From Octopus vulgaris (taxonomy: Eukaryota), in contig OX597826.1 in the NCBI GenBank assembly GCA_951406725.2, positions 36,146,001 through 36,210,000 of the forward strand: a stretch of 64,000 nucleotides of DNA. The letters run 5' to 3'. Below the pieces are notes generated by a model. The model was not told the origin of the DNA and ran no database searches. It worked only from the letters and a program-made list of their open reading frames with translations. The position numbers and the translations under genes were made by a program. Below, in pieces: positions 6,191 through 52,645 of the stretch (its first letter is position 1; every line of letters starts with the position of its first letter).

Positions 6191-7026
6191 AACATAATAG
6201 ATTATATTTATGTTCAAAACATATATAAGTTTGTTTTTTTTGTAAAGTAAAACTCATTAAATATAACCAAAGTTGCCGGCAGCAATTAGAGCAGTTATTG
6301 GACCTTAGTGACCCTTGTTAGACTTCATTTAACTCTGCTACCCAAGGTAGCAAGAAACAGAGCAGAGCTACGTATGAAATAATTAAGTTCGTGTTAATAT
6401 ACTTAATGTGGTGTGTATTGAAAAGTTAATTAAAATTAAATATGTGATGAACAAATGACAACATTAGGTCAATGATTGATATTATTTTTAATGATTTTAG
6501 AAAATCTATGAGACAATTCCAGTCATTTAGTTTTAATTAGTCGTTTGATGCTCACTTTTGATGTGTTTCATGCAGATGGCATCTCTGAGTAATTAACCTA
6601 ATTGGTTAATTAAAATTTAAAACAGTATGCTAATTTTTCACACCTACTTGTGTATATTATTGTAAATTTACTTGGTGATTCTCTTGTCAGTGTAGTGGCA
6701 AGTAAAATGAAGTTTTTGCTGATTCTGCTGAAGAGATCTAATGAGACCAGAACATGCCCAGAGTTGTCTTCCATACTTCCAAAACTAGTTAAAATAATAT
6801 TAATCGTTGACTTAATGTTATCTTTTTCTCACCACATAACCTTAATTAGTTTTTTTTTGTTTTAATTCTTGCCCCATTAAATATATTAAGTATGACTTTT
6901 AATACAGATGACATTTCTCAATAATTAAATTTATGAATTTATATTTCTTGTTTTTAGTTCACTTTTATGTATGTCACTCACTGGAGTGTAACCATGTTGG
7001 GTTTCAGTCAAACAAATTAGCAATGG

Positions 7027-7355
7027 TACAGTTCTATATTTAAGAGATGAGGAATTATGTACATTATTTACATTATTTACATTTGACAGATATTTGTCCT
7101 CATCTTGTTTGTTGTTAACACAACGTTTCGGCTGATATACCCTCCAGCCTTCATCAGGTGTCTTGGGGAAATTTCAAACCTGAGTTTTCATTCCTAAGGT
7201 ATTTTTCGATGTTATTATTATTATTATTATTCAGGTCACTGCCTGGAATTGAACTCAGAATCTTGGGGTTAGTAGCCCGCTCTCTTAACCACTATGCCAT
7301 ATACCCGTGGTTAAGAGCGCGGGCTACTAACCCCAAGTTCAATTCCTAGCAGTGA

Positions 7356-7399
<44 letters not shown>

Positions 7400-7555
7400 G
7401 TAATAATAATAACTTCGAAAAATACCTTAGGAATGAGAACCCAGGGTTCAAAATTTCCTCAAGACACCTGATGAAGGCTGGAGGGTATATCAGCCGAAGT
7501 GTTGTGTTAACAACAAACAAGATGAGGGCAAATATCTGTCAAATGTAAATAACGG
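7027..7555. mobile_element. Fold-back pair of tRNA-head/HHR PLE-derived elements (copy A on -, 7027-7310; copy B on +, 7307-7552)
   Basis: Long inverted repeat whose arms join at a shared GTGG (7307-7310). Diverged TSD AAATTAGCAATGGTAC (7014-7029) / AAATTAGCCAGGGTAC (7556-7571), 14 of 16 identical. Confidence 0.85.
7117..7162 (-). ncRNA. Minimal type-I hammerhead ribozyme motif (intact core)
   Basis: GACAC-CUGAUGA-A-GGCUG-GAGGGUAUAU-CAGCC-GAAA-CGUU^GUGUU. Stem I GACAC/GUGUU, stem II GGCUG/CAGCC, palindromic ACGU in place of helix III, GUU cleavage triplet. Confidence 0.85.
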
Positions 7556-8014
7556 AAATTAGCCAGGGTACTTATTCCTGGCAAATTGGCAATGGTACCA
7601 ACCCAAAGTGTGGCAGAGTAAGACCAAATCTGAAACAACATGGTGGCAAAGCAAACTTCTGGATGACACCACCAAACTAGCAGAGAGAAATGGCGGAGGG
7701 AAGAGAGAGAGAGAAGTGACTTGCAAACTGCATGCTCGTACAAGTGTTGTCAACTGAAAGCTGCGCATATTGGACACCAATAGGTTCATGAGAAGAGAAT
7801 GCACACAAGAGCTGAGAAACCCAAGCAAAATTTCTTGGAGCAGTTTACTCTTTCCAAGGTGGATGAGGGCACAAACTTCAATGGCTGTTGTATTCCTGTG
7901 AGAAGCAGTGGGACCCAGGTATTATTATCTTTGAAAGAAATAACAATAGAGGAATCACCCACAGATCCAGTAATTAATAGGATGTGGGCCTTGTTTGTTA
8001 CCCATCCCATAAAT

Positions 8015-9654: not shown

Positions 9655-9923
9655 GCAGTAAACACATAAATGTGAAACAAGGTGGAAAAAAAGAGTACTC
9701 AAATACCAGTGGTAGAGTAATATGCTTTATTTAAAGCAGCAGAAAATTCAACAAAATCTGTTACTCTGAGTTTCTCGTTGCCGTTCATCAGACAGTTTTT
9801 GCTAGAATGGAACCGATATATCAATTGATATATCGGTTCCATTCTAGCAAAAACTGTCTGATGAACGGCAACGAGAAACTCAGAGTAACAGATTTTGTTG
9901 AATTTTCTGCTGCTTTAAATAAA

Positions 9924-9928
<5 letters not shown>
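9651..9928. mobile_element. PLE-type fold-back insertion containing a perfect 200-bp palindrome (9725-9924), set in (TA)n
   Basis: 100-bp arms with no spacer, centre 9824/9825. Each arm carries an HHR. The left arm has an extra unpaired extension (9651-9719). Confidence 0.85.
9847..9898 (+). ncRNA. Type-I hammerhead ribozyme motif (mirror copy on - at 9751-9802)
   Basis: GCAAAAACUGU-CUGAUGA-ACGGCAACGA-GAAA-CUCAGAGUA^ACAGAUUUUGU. Stem I is 10 of 11 paired, helix III is the near-palindrome ACUC-A-GAGU, the triplet is GUA. Stem II is only CG-GCAA-CG with an A.A closing mismatch. Confidence 0.8.
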
Positions 9929-9957
<29 letters not shown>

Positions 9958-22686: not shown

Positions 22687-23443
22687 CATATACATAAATA
22701 TGCCTGTATTTATGCAGATATGTAAATAGGAACAAAGTCCAGCAATCAATTTAGCTTTTAACCCAGATTCTTGTTGTTCTTAAGTTAATGGAACTACTAA
22801 GAATGAGACTTGATTTTTTTTGCAATGGAAATCTCTCGTTCATGAAATTTATGGAAAAATGCAAGAATATTTGGCTAAAATATTATTTTCTAAAATCAAC
22901 CAGAATAACTAATGGAAAAATATTGAACTGTAAAAGTACAACAGAGATACGTTTGCAGATGTTTATGCTAAAATGTACTTTAATCTAGGTCAGCAGTAAT
23001 TTTTGTTGAGTCTCAACGGAATGAATTTTCCTGTGCAACAACCATATGTTTGTGCTTGTTGAAACCCCTAGCAGAATCTTTGGTCATATGGGAACATGTT
23101 GGTGATATTTGTGATCAATTGTTTGGATAAATAAATTGGAAATATATAAAAATACAATAACATATAAAAGGAACATTATTTACATCATTTACATTTGATG
23201 GATATTTGTCCTCATCTTGTTTGTTGTTAATACAACATTTCGGCTGATTTACCCTCCAGCCTTAATCAGGTGTCTTGGGGAAATTTCGAACCTCCGTTCT
23301 CAATCTTAAGGTATTTTTTAATGTTATTATTATTATTATTATTCCGGTCACTGCCTGGAATTGAACTCAGAATCTTGGGTTTAGTAGCCCATGCTCTTAA
23401 CCACTATGCCATATGCCCATGGGCATAATAATATTAATAATAA

Positions 23444-23674
23444 GGGGGGCAAATTGGCAGAAATGCTAGCATGCCAGGTGAAATGCTTAGTGGTATTTCG
23501 TTTGTCTTTATGTTCTGAGTTCAAATTCCGCAGAGGTCGACTTTGCCTTTCATCCTTGCAGACTCGATAAATTAAGTACCAGTTATGCACTGGGATCGAT
23601 GTAATCGACTTAATTCCTTTGTCTGTCCTTGTTTGTCCCCTCTATGTTTAGCCCCTTGTAGGCAATAAAGAAAT
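23444..23674 (+). mobile_element. SINE family M
   Basis: TGGCAGAAAT...GAGTTCAAATTCC head and central GACTTTGCCTTTCATCCTT...GATAAATTAAGTACCAG; inserted in (AAT)n. Confidence 0.85.
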
Positions 23675-24565
23675 AATAATAATAATAATAATAACATCAA
23701 AAAATACCTTAGGAATGAGAATTGAGGTTTGAAATTTCCCCAAGACACCTGATGAAGGCTGGAGGGTAGATCAGCCGAAACAAGAAACAAGTTGAAGACA
23801 AATATCCGTTAAATGTAAATAATATAAATAACTAGCATTAAAGACCCCGTCGTTGCCGGGTCATAGTGCTAGTGCATGTATATATGTGTATATATATGTG
23901 TACATCTATATATATACATCTACACATAAAATACAAAATACAAAGTTATATCTTGATATCGCTAGTGATAACAATACTCAAAATATATAACAGAGTGGAA
24001 TTGTTAGCCCGTCTCTTCTAATTTCAATCAATTGTATCTTGTCCTCCCTCTTGTATAGAAGTGTGGCTACAATCCAGCCTACCTCTACTTCTGGCGGGGG
24101 AGGGCATTTTAAATTTTTTTCTGGGACATCCTACGTCCAAGATATAAAGGTAAGAATAAAATATTTCCACTTTGCAAGTTCGAGTCGAGTACTCCCTTGC
24201 ACGCTCCGTTGACTCGAACCTTGCTTCTATTGTGGCGAATTTACTGCCTCTGATTAGATATCTTTCATAGTCGCACCAAGACACTTTTCGAAAGTGCTTT
24301 CCTCCATGTGTTTAAATCTTCTTTCTTCTCAACATTGTATACTTTATAGACAGTAGTCTTTTCTTTAATTTAATTTTTTATTATCCATCTTGACTATTCC
24401 ATTTCTGCACGCTAATTTTATTTTTAATTTATTCCCATTCATGTGAAACCTCTTATTGAAGTTCAAGTCATTGATGCAATTTTATACAAATTGCTATTTT
24501 TACTTTTGTTATGTTACGATGATATTATACTTTAGTTTGATTTTAATTATTACTTACTACATATA

Positions 24566-24909
24566 TTACGGAGATGTACTCGCATAGCAAGTAATTTGAT
24601 CTGAGATCGTGTGCTGAAATGAAAACAATTGCAGCGTGGAAGGTGTTTGTAAGCCATTTAAGAAACACACAAAAGCCGTTCGATTCACTTCAACATTTAA
24701 GTTTAATTTGTCAAAATACTTTCGTCGCTAAAATCCGTGACCTGTTCACTGACAAAAATCCGAGATGCAGCACGGATTTTTGTCAGTAAACAGGTCGCGG
24801 ATCTTAGCGACGAAAATATTTTGACAAATTAAACTTAAATGTTGAAGTGAATCGAACGGCTTTGTGTGTTTCTTAAATGGCTTACAAACACCTTCCATGC
24901 TGCAATTGT
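24566..24909. mobile_element. PLE-type fold-back insertion with variant HHR motifs, nested in the Helitron
   Basis: Arms 24623-24762 and 24773-24911 with a 10-nt spacer. 12-bp TSD TTACTACATATA at 24554-24565 and 24910-24921. Left arm has an extra ~57-nt extension. Confidence 0.85.
24779..24828 (+). ncRNA. Candidate G3-C8 variant hammerhead ribozyme (mirror copy on - at 24707-24756)
   Basis: Two-arm consensus UUUGUCA-GUGAACA-G-GUCGC-GGAUYUUA-GCGAC-GAA-AAUAUU-U^UGACAAA. Confidence 0.65.
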
Positions 24910-25599
24910 TTACTACATATAATTCAATTGTTATTATTATTTTTATTGTTAAAGTGAAAGTATCTGACATAAAATAGAGAAACGTTTTTGTTTCACTTTT
25001 AACACGTAATACTGAAATAGTGGAGAAGATATGATATTGCTATGGGCTCGCTCTAGGCAAGAAGTTGAACATTTTTTTTGCCCATGAAACTACATGGACC
25101 CTAAGTAAGGCATGTGTAAAATTTGAATGAAATTGGTTGTGTAGTTCTCAAGTTTTAGGGAAACACACACACAGACAGACAGACACACACACACACATTC
25201 TCAGTTTTATATATATAAAGATGTACATAATTCCTCATCTCTTAAATACAGAACTGTAGAATATAAAAGGAAATTGGATAAATTCCTAATTAGTCAATCA
25301 AATTAATCAACCATTACAAAGGAAGGTTAGTTGCTACAGACTCAATTATTGATCAACAGAGACTGAATGTAAATCCATTAAGATTGAATGTAAACCTGAA
25401 GACATTGTCTTGGTACACAGCACAAGTTTCAGAATGAAGGAATAGGAGAAAAATGGAAATCAAAAGCTGTAAAGAAACAAGTGGTGGTTTATGCCACTGT
25501 AAAATGTATAGCACAGTTCATAGGCATAGTTATGGCTTCCTAACCAATTGGTTTTGGTTCACCAGTTCTGGAGGATCTGGAAAATCCATGAATACAACA

Positions 25600-41754: not shown

Positions 41755-42137
41755 ATCTTTTATTTGTTTTGGTCATTAGACTGCAACCATGCTGGATCAC
41801 TGCTTTGAAGAATTCTTAGATGATCGAATCTGTCCCAGGATTTATTTTCCTTATGCCTGATACTTATTCTATTGGTTTCATTTGCTGATCTACTAAGTTA
41901 TGGAAGTAGAAACACACCAATACCATTTGTCAAGTGGCAGTGGGGGACAAAAACAAATACAAAGACACATCTACTTAGAGATATGTGCAACAGGCTTCTT
42001 TGAGTTTCCTTTTACCAAATCCACACCCAAGGCTTTAAATGACCCAAAGCTATAGAAGACACTTGCCCAAAGTGCCACGTGGTGGGACTGAACCCAGAAC
42101 TATGTAGCTAGAAGCAAACTTCTTACCATACAGCCAG
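41755..42137 (-). mobile_element. SINE family K
   Basis: Aligns to 49477-49884. Confidence 0.75.
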
Positions 42138-42234
42138 AAAAGAATTCAAGAATGGTAAAAAAAATTACAAAGCAATGAATGAGAGAACACAATAAATGGA
42201 TTTTAGTTTTGCACTTTAAGGAAGAAATAGAGAG

Positions 42235-42304
42235 AGCATAGGGCATAGTGGTTAAGAGTGTAGGCTACTGACCCCAAGATTCCGAGTTTGATTCCAGGCA
42301 GTGA

Positions 42305-42370
<66 letters not shown>

Positions 42371-42553
42371 CAACATCGAAAAATAGCTTAGGAATGAGAA
42401 CCCAGGTCTGAAATTTCCTCCAAACACCTGATGAAGGCTGGAAGGTCTATCAGCTGAAACATTGTGTTAACAACAAACAAGATGAGGACAAATATCTGTC
42501 AAATGTAAATAATGTAAATAATGTACATAATAACTCATCTCTGAAATATAGAG
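42235..42553 (+). mobile_element. Solo tRNA-head/(AAT)n/HHR element (copy E), SINE-like insertion
   Basis: Perfect 39-bp direct repeat at 42196-42234 and 42554-42592. The element begins at the tRNA-like 5' end. Confidence 0.9.
42423..42468 (+). ncRNA. Minimal type-I hammerhead motif (near intact)
   Basis: AACAC-CUGAUGA-A-GGCUG...CAGCU-GAAA-CAUU^GUGUU; the helix III palindrome is broken (ACAU instead of ACGU). Confidence 0.75.
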
Positions 42554-43469
42554 ATGGATTTTAGTTTTGCACTTTAAGGAAGAAATAGAGAGTGAGGGAG
42601 AGGGGGGGTGGAAGAGAGAGCAGGAGAGGGAGCTTGCGAGTTTGGTCTTTTGGAGAGTGATTCTGCAATGGGAATGGTAGGAGGGAAAAAGAGAAAAGCG
42701 TGTATTTATTTATTTATTTACAAGGAGAAGAGAAAATTGCAATGTTTTCTGTAAATCTTTGATTGGTGAAATAAACATCAGAGATGCTTTGACCCCAGCA
42801 GAATCTGCAGGAGATATGCAAAGGTTTTTCAAGCCCTCTTTCTTAATCCATTGCAATGCTGGAAACCCTTCTGTCATGTCAGCAGGAATCTTTAGAAATT
42901 CATCTATGAAATAATTGTTGCAAACACAGACAAGTACTATTTTCTTTGAATTCTTGCTTTTAGTTTATAGTTGAAAGGTTTGATCCAAGAATATTCCTGG
43001 GGCTTAGTTTCTTGACCATGGAGGGATTTCAAAAGCTAAGACAAACTCAACTGACTTTGAACTGTGTCAAAGAGAGATGAACTTCAAATACTATACAAAT
43101 ATTTAATCTAGAGTTCAGTGAATTTGCAGTGTTGTTCATGTGTTGGATTGAATGTTTTATGGTATCTGTTATGACTCAGAACACTCTGAGTTCAAATCCC
43201 ACCAAGGTCAACTTTGCCTTCGATTTTCTTTGAAATTCATAAATATAATACCAATTCCAGATGATGCATTGGCAGAATTGCTAGAGTGCCATATGAGATG
43301 CTTTGTGGTAACTCTTCTGACTTTTGATCAAAAGATCACAAATTCCATCAAGACTCCAATAGCTAGAACTAATTGCTTGAGTGTCAGACCAACCTGTTCA
43401 AGCCATATTTGGCCAGAATAGATAGCCAGGTCTATAATCAGCATAGAAAAAGCCAGGACAGAAAAAGAA

Positions 43470-47622: not shown

Positions 47623-47890
47623 GCATTTTTGCTCCCTTACACAAAGTCACAATGTTGCTGTTGCCCCTTCTCCTGTCAATATGTCATTCACTCACTTTGT
47701 GTCTTTGAAGAAATCCCCTACTTGAAAAACATCCAAAGGTTACCACCAAGAAAGGCATTTTTGCTCCCTTACACAAAGTCACAATGTTGCTGTTGCCCCT
47801 TCTCCTGTCAATATGTCATTCACTCACTTTGTGTCTTTGAAGAAATCCCCTACTTGAAAAACATCCAAAGGTTACCACCAAGAAAGGCAT
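47623..47890. repeat. Perfect 132-bp tandem duplication
   Basis: 47623-47754 equals 47755-47886, with GCAT at all three boundaries. Confidence 0.95.
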
Positions 47891-48975: not shown

Positions 48976-49353
48976 TAGTTACAAAATTCCTTGGTTAGCA
49001 AGGCAGCTGTTATATACAAGGACATTAATATACTGTAGCTGAATATGAGATCATTACATATTGTGTAGAATTGTTATATATGATACATAATTTACATTAT
49101 TTACATTTGACGGATATTTGTCCTCATCTTGTTTGTTGTTAACACGTTTCAGCTGATATACCCTTCAGCCTTCATCAGGTGTCTTAGGGAAATTTCTCAT
49201 TACTAAGGTATGCTTTGATGCTTTTACTATTAAGGTCACTGCCTGAAATTGAACTCAGAATCTTGGGGTTAGTAGCCTGCACTCTTAAACACTACACCAT
49301 ATGCCTGTGGGCAATTATGGAGTGAATTTTAGGGCTTATAAATCTAATATTTT

Positions 49354-50052
49354 TCAATCTTTCCTTAATACCAGTTCCCATATGCTGCTCGTATCTGTAC
49401 TCGGTCTGCTTAGAAGGTTGTTATGTCCTAGCATATGTGCTGCTTCTTTAAGTTTTCGTATTTTCCAGTGGTGTTCTTTACTCTTTACTCTCTTACTCTT
49501 TTACTTGTTTCAGTCATTTGACTGCGGCCATGCTGGAGCACCACCTTTAATCGAGCAACTCGACACCGGGACTTATTCTTTTGTAAGCCCAGTACTTATT
49601 CTATCGGTCTCTTTTGCTGAACCGCTAAGTAACGGGGACATAAACACACCAGCATCGGTTGTCAAGCAATGCTAGGGGGACAAACACAGACACACAAACA
49701 CACACACGCATATATATACATATATACGACGGGCTTCTTTCAGTTTCCGTCTACCAAATCCACTCACAAGGCTTTGGTCGGCCCGAGGCTATAGTAGAAG
49801 ACACTTGCCCAAGGTGCCACGCAGTGGGAATGAACCCGGAACCATGTGGTTGGTAAACAAGCTACTTACCACACAGCCACTCCTTATTTTAACTTCATCC
49901 CACGGGAGTGGTCTCCATTTTTCCATACATGATCAGCTAAACCCAATTTATCAATATCTCCTTGTGTCACAGATTTGCAATGTTCCTCTACCCTTATTTT
50001 TAGGGGGGGGGGGGGCGGCGGAAATTTTTCGCCTTTGTATAACCTACCACAG
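49354..50052 (-). pseudogene. PLE GIY-YIG endonuclease C-terminus, frameshifted and split by a SINE
   Basis: SCGRLYKGE..PLKIRVEEHCKSVTQGDIDKLGLADHVWKNGDH / PWDEVKI / [SINE 49477-49884] / KEHHWKIRKLKEAAHMLGHNNLLSRPSTDTSSIWELVLRKD* fits the Penelope EN pattern CG..YiGeT.r.Lk.R..EH...S.lA.H...H...W.......E..w..Rk.kEa. Confidence 0.85.
49477..49884 (-). mobile_element. SINE family K, best-preserved copy
   Basis: Minus strand AGGAGTGGCTGTGTGGTAAG...CCGGGTTCATTCCCAC...GACTGAAACAAGTAAAAGAG with a (TAAAGAG)-like tail; CpGs largely retained. Confidence 0.9.
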
Positions 50053-50202
50053 CTGATGAAGGCTGGAGGGTATATCAGCTGAAACATGTTAACAACAAAC
50101 AAGATGAGGACAAATATCCATCGAATGTAAATAATGTAAATAATGTAAATAATGTGCATGATTCCTCATCTCTTAAATATAGAACTATGTTATATATGAT
50201 AT

Positions 50203-51698: not shown

Positions 51699-51911
51699 CA
51701 TATATGTAAAAGGGATAAGTTATGCTGACAGATATATGAATATATATATTTATATATATATATAAATGTGTGTGTGTGTGTGTTATTGCAGGAAACAGAA
51801 CTTGTACAGGTATAATCATATTTGTCTCTGCACATCACATTGTAAATTTCAGCTCTCTGCTAGTATTCGTTTGTCTTTTACTGATGCTGAAGTGAACTAA
51901 AGTGTTATATA

Positions 51912-52645
51912 ATGAAGGAAGTTGAATGCAGATCAGTGATCAGGTTCTTATACCTGAAAGGCCATACACCAATAGAGACTTTCGATGAAATGAAAGAAGT
52001 TTATGGTGATGATGCACCATCATACGACGTAGTCAAGCACTGGCACCACCAGTTGAAATATGGTCAGACATCGGTGGAAACTGCACCTATTCCCGGATGG
52101 CCACATTCTGCCATTGATGATGGCACCATCCATAAAGTGGAAACTGTTTTTTTTTTGGAGGATTACCACATAGCTATTTGGCAACTAGCCCAAGAAGTGA
52201 AGATACATATAGGGTCCATGGAAAAAAGTCATTCACAACCATTTACATACGTGGAAGTTGTCTGTATGATGGATTCCCCAGATGCTCACACCTTTTCAGA
52301 AGCAGGAATGAGTCAGTTGCTCCTAGACTCTTTTAGCAATGTGCCAAGAAAACGAGGAGGACTTTTTCAGCAGAATTATCACAGGGTGAAACATGGGTCC
52401 ATCACTTTGATCCTGAGACTAAAGTCCATTTGAAGCAATGGAAGCATGATTACTCACCACATCCAAAGAAGGCTTGTGTCCAACCCTCAGCAGGCAAGGT
52501 GATGCTCACAGTCAATGTGGAGTAGTGGTGATGGATTTTCTGGCAAAGGGCACCACAATTAACAGGGCATATTATGCTTCTCTGCTGCAGAAATTGCAAG
52601 ATGCCAACAAAGCAGAGAGGTGTGGCATGCTGACCAAAAGCATTT
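51912..52645 (+). pseudogene. Mariner transposase, N-terminal two thirds, frameshifted and 3'-truncated
   Basis: MKEVECRSVIRFLYLKG...EVYGDDAPSYDVVKHW HTH, WIPQML (WVPHEL-like), ETWVHHFDPETK, PSAGKVML, DFLAKGTTINRAYYASLL. Confidence 0.92.

Follow-up and report, generated by a model that had tools for sequence, protein, structure and literature searches.

A tRNA-like promoter module in the terminal repeat of an octopus Penelope element and its likely part in the spread of SINE-like short copies

The window, by which we mean the whole 64,000-nt stretch of Octopus vulgaris DNA that was analysed (contig OX597826.1, positions 36,146,001 to 36,210,000), carries three head-to-head pairs of one repeat cassette (copies A/B, C/D and F/G) plus copy E, which stands by itself inside a long direct repeat. 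The features are as follows, in window coordinates.

42196..42234, + strand: left 39-bp direct repeat, whose terminal G is also tRNA +1
42234..42310, + strand: tRNA-derived head of copy E (A box 42241-42251, B box 42286-42294)
42311..42372, + strand: (AAT)n/(AAC)n tract within the copy E pLTR
42373..42553, + strand: body of copy E, 181 nt, with the tail at about 42522-42552
42423..42468, + strand: minimal type I hammerhead of copy E (predicted fold)
42554..42592, + strand: right 39-bp direct repeat, which also adjoins the element 3′ end in a contig of organism F
7027..7310, - strand: copy A, the arm with the tail in inverted pair A/B, its 5′ end being at -4
7307..7559, + strand: copy B, the other arm of that pair, tailless (core of the duplication 7020-7029 / 7589-7598)
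23173..23425, - strand: copy C, the arm without a tail in pair C/D, its 5′ end being at -7
23672..25258, + strand: copy D, tail-bearing arm of pair C/D (body to 23831, tail 25221-25258)
49079..50068, - strand: copy F, tailless arm of pair F/G
50049..50186, + strand: copy G, tail-bearing arm of pair F/G

Each pair lies within a short duplication, which for A/B has an exact core of 10 bp (about 16 bp with one mismatch), for C/D is 12 bp long (23162-23173 / 25261-25272) and for F/G 14 bp (49072-49085 / 50188-50201), and the 39 bp at E is indeed far above these, as originally remarked. Copies A and C had been reported to terminate near the tRNA +1, which they do (at -4 and -7), but as arms of their pairs and not as lone copies. 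Copy D is split by about 1.4 kb of other sequence, while copy F extends upstream of its tRNA head into the C-terminus of a Penelope ORF (49339-49479), is broken by another repeat and picks up again at 49884-50068. The family that interrupts copy F at 49486-49884, an abundant short repeat distinct from the cassette, also has a copy just upstream of E (41755-42136).

The original prediction described E as a tRNA/hammerhead cassette inside a perfect direct repeat, and the outline stands: the repeat matches at 39/39 bases (42196-42234 = 42554-42592), cannot be lengthened as an exact match and abuts both ends of E within 1 nt, E begins at its tRNA-like 5′ end (+1 = 42234), and it reaches almost to the family 3′ end (body position 180 of 186). 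Two details need correcting. E was said to be free of ORF sequence, but an ATG at 42394 (body position 22) opens 55 codons in the frame of the Penelope ORF, which in E are cut short by a stop at codon 6. The ribozyme was called near-intact; its fold is present at 42423-42468, with stem I AACAC/GTGTT, the core CTGATGA at 42428-42434, an extra A, stem II, GAAA at 42456-42459 and a predicted cut after 42463, but the ACGT palindrome of stem III (GAAACATT) is lost. Both promoter boxes carry one damaging change each (T8 to G in the A box; a B box reading GTTTGA). Because ribozyme palindrome and promoter boxes are all affected, E itself is likely dead.

In the majority sequence of the family, A and B boxes match their consensus perfectly, and the best match to the head among the 20 genomic tRNAs compared is tRNA-Arg (49/75, alignment z 8.8). 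The octopus SINEs OR1 and OR2 are reportedly of tRNA-Arg origin as well. ARAGORN found no tRNA gene at the head, we obtained no cloverleaf fold for it, and neither a tRNA nor a hammerhead family was among the Rfam matches listed for the window, E and one further locus (L284). A quasi-palindrome spans the edge of the head at -7..+5.

What lies beyond the head became legible in copy F, whose upstream DNA holds the reading frame KEHHWKIRKLKEAAHML...; a search with this DNA returned the order ORF end, 30-nt spacer, head in 28 of 30 loci. The ORF translations contain the RT motif YVDD, EEH and ADH, as well as a GIY-YIG-type motif at the C-terminus (VYSIPCSCG..Y.GET). Four database proteins match the ORF at 55-67% identity, with RVT_1 in both of the two scanned; a Pfam scan of three decayed ORF fragments gave nothing above cut-off. 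The translations thus present an RT followed by a C-terminal GIY-YIG with CCHH and without an extra Cys linker, the arrangement that sets the Penelope/Poseidon clade apart in the available part of PMC8557442. At its other end the cassette runs on in frame from its last bases into the ORF N-terminus at three loci (L303, L200 and L125), and the tRNA module lies about 100-150 nt ahead of the Penelope start codon. Since the cassette stands behind the ORF stop at one end and leads in frame into the ORF start at the other, it is a complete Penelope/Poseidon-type pLTR plus tail and not a stand-alone SINE with a borrowed tail. The tRNA head belongs to the pLTR of the autonomous element itself, which makes the short copies solo pLTRs.

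Among the loci recovered, none is a full-length copy with an intact upstream pLTR; locus L321, considered as a tandem full-length copy, turned out to be two separate insertions. Three near-identical ORF-bearing copies (L293, L294, L295 / L304, L313, L319) lie within about 1.1 Mb on one contig, probably through segmental duplication. Other Penelope families returned by a GIY-YIG family search were rejected as partners of the cassette, to which they have no similarity. We also observed a young Penelope family (L061:1245-4600 and L062) whose RT/GIY-YIG frame is open over 781 aa. It has a cysteine linker and a further frame upstream, and the hammerhead-like motif close to its 3′ end contains the core TTGATAA, in which the 3-8 pair is swapped.

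To describe how the family inserts, we collected 211 distinct clusters, 201 of them with enough flank, which divide into 116 inverted pairs and 85 single-strand copies (many of them fragments). An adjacent direct repeat is found at 42 of the 201 insertions, compared with 0-2 in 20 shuffles, and 40 of these 42 are inverted pairs. Duplication lengths, compiled as had been proposed, are 9-16 bp in 40 of the 42 with a mode of 12-13, the others being 21 bp and the 39 bp of E, the longest of all. Exactly one arm bears the tail (~35 nt) in 71 of 74 two-armed insertions, and head-to-tail tandem cases are rare (e.g. L125, L200). The usual insertion is therefore a head-to-head pair in which one arm lacks the ~35-nt tail, inside a 9-16-bp duplication. 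That single insertions with a long duplication are the mode of the family was not upheld, and a long duplication as a family trait was rejected on these lengths and because only one of six complete single-arm copies, namely E, has a target duplication at all. The proposed Penelope origin and mobilisation of the cassette, by contrast, is supported by the order of ORF, spacer and head, by the pair structure and by the short duplications. One tail-bearing arm per insertion fits a scheme in which both target strands act as primers, at two RNA sites that delimit the tail; for the anole Poseidon such priming has been shown in vitro (PMC11167929, available part). At locus L012:1-1090 a 9-nt TGTAAATAA unit of the tailless priming region has grown into a satellite of more than 1 kb at the end of one arm.

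The 39-bp duplication at E is real, but an outlier for its family. Even when up to 2 mismatches are allowed, the 28-nt core of the 39-mer has only two sites in the 2.8-Gb genome, both of them at E. Contigs from four sequencing runs end at the 39-mer; among the joints listed for them none crosses the element and none shows an empty site, which contigs that stop at a 39-bp repeat would hardly reveal, and no RNA data set was listed as containing the locus. In the contig of organism F the tail is closer to the consensus, and the 41 bases that come after it match the left repeat together with the two bases upstream of it; the right flank has diverged from that of the window. Because this contig with its diverged flank already has the 3′ end and the right repeat, the filled site of E is old. 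Two bases of the 41-bp junction are common to the end of the element, and such sharing is to be expected where priming took place; the duplication probably measured 41 bp at first, these two bases being shared. Contigs of runs X4, X5 and X15 contain a second, diverged look-alike of the 39-mer that adjoins a reverse-strand GAAACGTC motif; the look-alike is absent from the genome assembly at up to 2 mismatches.

One could suppose that the repeat is instead a later product, for example of a repair event that deleted one arm of an ordinary inverted pair. Its singularity among the six complete single-arm copies and its length beside the usual 9-16 bp speak for this, as does the improbability of finding the two copies identical in an element that differs from the majority sequence at 12 of 233 non-CpG sites: the chance of an exact 39-mer pair at the family's mean divergence is about 0.02, rising to 0.10 for a 41-bp duplication that carries one change, and such values leave room for a later origin. 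However, the organism F contig, having the 3′ end and the right copy, makes the structure old, its junction looks like a priming site, and the repeat comes within 1 nt of each element end. We consider a later origin rather unlikely. E is likely an aberrant one-armed Penelope insertion, in which the tail-primed arm alone would have been kept and the second strand resolved 39-41 bp away.

If the short copies derive from RNAs that began at the tRNA-like promoter, their 5′ ends should gather at +1. This genome-wide check had been set beforehand, and a sharp peak is what we found, the exact motif counts dropping from 4007 at +1..+18 to 1051 at -28..-12. Further inside, the count is 6195 (+31..+47), further out 969 (-141..-125), and reversed-motif controls gave 0; the loss is thus 74% over 29 nt across +1 (about fourfold), compared with 8% over the next 113 nt. 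These counts compare different 17-18-mers of unlike mutability, from which a fourfold effect is implausible. Among the first 30 loci on one contig that were anchored on +1..+18 (including two pairs of arms and three near-identical copies), 25 end at -7..0, five enter the ORF (at least 57 nt upstream) and none ends between. In sets not picked by their 5′ end, 80 of 149 arms contain head sequence; +9 is reached by 59 arms, and 44 of these stop at -8..+9. Per nucleotide, the rate of 5′ ends is 4.1% at -8..+9, 0.8% at +10..+39 and 0.25% at -138..-39. Simple truncation as the source of the 5′ ends is ruled out by this pile-up. The fourfold fall across +1, together with the 25 of 30 loci ending at -7..0, suggests that a large class of RNAs likely began at the tRNA promoter, with transcription presumably by Pol III. 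An extra 5′ G was considered as a cap signature and rejected, the cases being mostly explained by microhomology with the partner arm.

The step at +1 might also reflect a Pol II start, or fold-back of a palindrome at the pLTR edge, the tRNA module then being a passenger that the UTR had taken up as an old SINE or a tRNA fragment. Penelope is described as starting within its pLTR in Pol II fashion and palindromes are known at pLTR 5′ ends of other Penelopes, TATA/Inr-like motifs being described for those of Adineta (PMC8557442 and PMC3846280 for the first two points, PMC3846280 for the last, each in its available part). In our material, 29 of the 91 arms that end near +1 have inverted head sequence at the junction (20 with a 7-13-nt stub, 9 with a longer one), so fold-back does occur. 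The remaining 62 arms lack any such stub, however, and for this reason the palindrome alone does not explain the peak. Moreover, the ends fall where a tRNA-type promoter would start transcription, the majority sequence has perfect A and B boxes and, on its sense strand, no run of four T, all of which makes a Pol II or fold-back origin of the step improbable.

That the cassette was retroposed alone as a separate SINE lineage, as first proposed, is not borne out, the tRNA head belonging to the autonomous pLTR and no private variant having been found. SINEs are defined as Pol III passengers of LINEs. The family shares with tRNA-derived SINEs a tRNA-derived 5′ head with A and B boxes and copies that start at it; a SINE-type 3′ end (from a LINE, or of poly(A) or a simple repeat) and monomer insertion with duplication are lacking, as the 3′ end is the Penelope ORF start and 116 of 201 insertions are inverted pairs. 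In its working the family is SINE-like, since most templates that reached the head evidently began at the tRNA-type promoter and were without a complete ORF; on 3′ end and insertion form it fails SINE membership.

A true SINE lineage, in which solo tRNA-headed copies act as independent masters and use Penelope protein in trans, is nonetheless conceivable. Short copies stand to ORF-bearing ones at about 3 to 1 at +1 and contain all cis elements thought necessary, and the two arms of a pair, if both extend into the head, tend to share one class. The family has two subfamilies, each found both with and without the ORF. When all loci are pooled, one is enriched among short arms (53/57 against 31/53, in pools biased by their queries), but the difference is gone in sets not picked by sequence similarity (p=0.58), and we found no variant that only short copies carry. 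We are inclined to doubt such a lineage while granting it some weight. The reading that we prefer is that a Penelope pLTR with a tRNA-like promoter likely let tens of thousands of SINE-like short copies spread.

In such a model RNAs would start at about -6..+1, on a template that may be supplied either by a solo pLTR or by a full-length element through its 5′ pLTR, and the Penelope protein would bind the ORF-start region of the RNA. Reverse transcription would then be primed from both nicked target strands at two RNA sites ~35 nt apart, copying back to the RNA 5′ end would yield SINE-like arms, and the arms would be joined head to head inside a 9-16-bp duplication.

The hammerhead may leave its own trace. 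Minimal type I hammerheads of metazoan PLEs have a short stem I, a long stem II, an extra base before stem II and an ACGT palindrome in place of stem III (PMC4209133, available part), and core plus palindrome are intact in 68 of 227 arms of the octopus family, with cleavage as a prediction. The 67 internal 5′ ends include 8 at body positions 91-94, beside the predicted cut before position 92 (p 0.005, post hoc and without correction). Since a palindrome at 93-100 and head microhomology confound this count, it is a weak hint that some templates may have been cleaved at the hammerhead. In L210, L249 and L198 arms start at the predicted cut or within 2 bases of it, both arms doing so in L210 and L249.

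A bolder proposal is that the whole coding element is transcribed by Pol III from the tRNA promoter of its pLTR, as an autonomous element with a Pol III mRNA that sheds SINE-like copies when RT starts in the 5′ pLTR. On the sense strand, runs of four T number 0 in the majority reference and 0 in 2511 nt of L303, whereas another Penelope family has 9 in 2343 nt; counted over many copies that are not independent of one another, the density is 0.31 per kb and in the other family 3.17. Shuffling synonymous codons over 677 codons gave a mean of 3.1 expected runs for the 0 found (P about 0.03), and with codons controlled for, runs of three T show no significant depletion (P 0.15-0.20). The scarcity of T runs is partly explained by amino-acid make-up and is suggestive only as support for Pol III, and we hold transcription of the entire element in this way to be doubtful.

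Among known systems, the octopus family is close to Poseidon of Anolis (PMC11167929) and Pen2 and Pen2a of Adineta (PMC3846280), with which, as far as the available parts of these papers go, it shares an RT with a C-terminal GIY-YIG, a pLTR containing the hammerhead and the first codons, one arm with a tail of 30-40 nt, pLTRs that lie inverted within short duplications, and two RT start sites on both strands; in the anole Poseidon the ORF begins within the hammerhead region. The octopus family has accordingly the pLTR behind the ORF with its first codons, the minimal type I hammerhead, the inverted insertions and the one-arm tail, E being an exception in insertion form. A spliceosomal intron close to the pLTR is a further feature by which Penelope/Poseidon elements are recognised. 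It differs in that the pLTR opens with a tRNA-derived A/B-box module and in the dominance of ORF-less pLTR pairs. Metazoan PLE hammerheads are of the same fold type, and in Schistosoma they occur as opposite-strand pairs 100-700 bp apart, but the tRNA head is absent from the available part of that account (PMC4209133).

Sm-alpha and Sj-alpha of schistosomes are likewise tRNA-related, SINE-like hammerhead repeats of tens of thousands of copies, but their description, in the part available, gives them no link to an autonomous Penelope (PMC2770079), whereas in octopus the unit serves a coding element as its terminal repeat. TRIMp3 elements (Cassandra, Helenus, Ajax; PMC10886601, available part) share a small-RNA-derived Pol III promoter in the terminal repeat of a retroelement; they are non-autonomous LTR elements whose autonomous partners are expected to use Pol II, while in octopus the autonomous element itself has the tRNA module. 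Animal retrozymes (bioRxiv 10.64898/2026.07.22.740005), MRC1 (PMC8557442) and short Penelopes of Heliconius (PMC6685494) are, in the available descriptions, also short, non-coding and PLE-moved, and either descend from pLTRs or have ends in common with them. Retrozymes and MRC1 form tandem arrays, however, whereas the octopus copies are head-to-head pairs and do not show the head-to-tail arrays with one hammerhead per unit by which non-LTR retrozymes are recognised; tRNA is nowhere named in the retrozyme preprint. The octopus SINEs OK, OR1 and OR2, for which Ohshima and Okada 1994 is cited, are by their description tRNA-derived repeats too, and OR1 or OR2 is cited as a CORE-SINE, unlike the cassette (PMC4824008, PMC4758252, available parts). 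Each Penelope feature seen here is already published, and tRNA-related hammerhead SINEs, Pol III promoters in terminal repeats and non-autonomous PLE derivatives are also known. The literature searches listed no account of a tRNA promoter in a pLTR or of a Penelope-mobilised tRNA SINE, and Repbase, Dfam, SINEBase or the repeat library of PMC13282606 may already include the family.

Extrapolation from a blind sample (19 in 1.18 Mb) gives about 45,000 clusters genome-wide. If our reading is correct, the terminal repeat of an autonomous Penelope contains a Pol III-type promoter and the SINE-like copies bear Penelope's own insertion signature, so that a SINE-like family would have arisen straight from an autonomous element. 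The copies would also be a large natural record for the model of two-start, two-strand priming, so far known in vitro. Should the ORF be part of a Pol III transcript, this would bear on the translation of uncapped retroelement RNAs. The 39-bp duplication of E, being one outlier, adds little.

Elsewhere in the window lie a near-perfect 205-bp palindrome (9720-9929) and a shorter hairpin (24716-24819), both probably MITE-like insertions, as well as an exact 136-bp tandem duplication at 47623-47890. A 180-aa frame at 51891-52433 resembles what we take to be the N-terminus of a mariner-type transposase.
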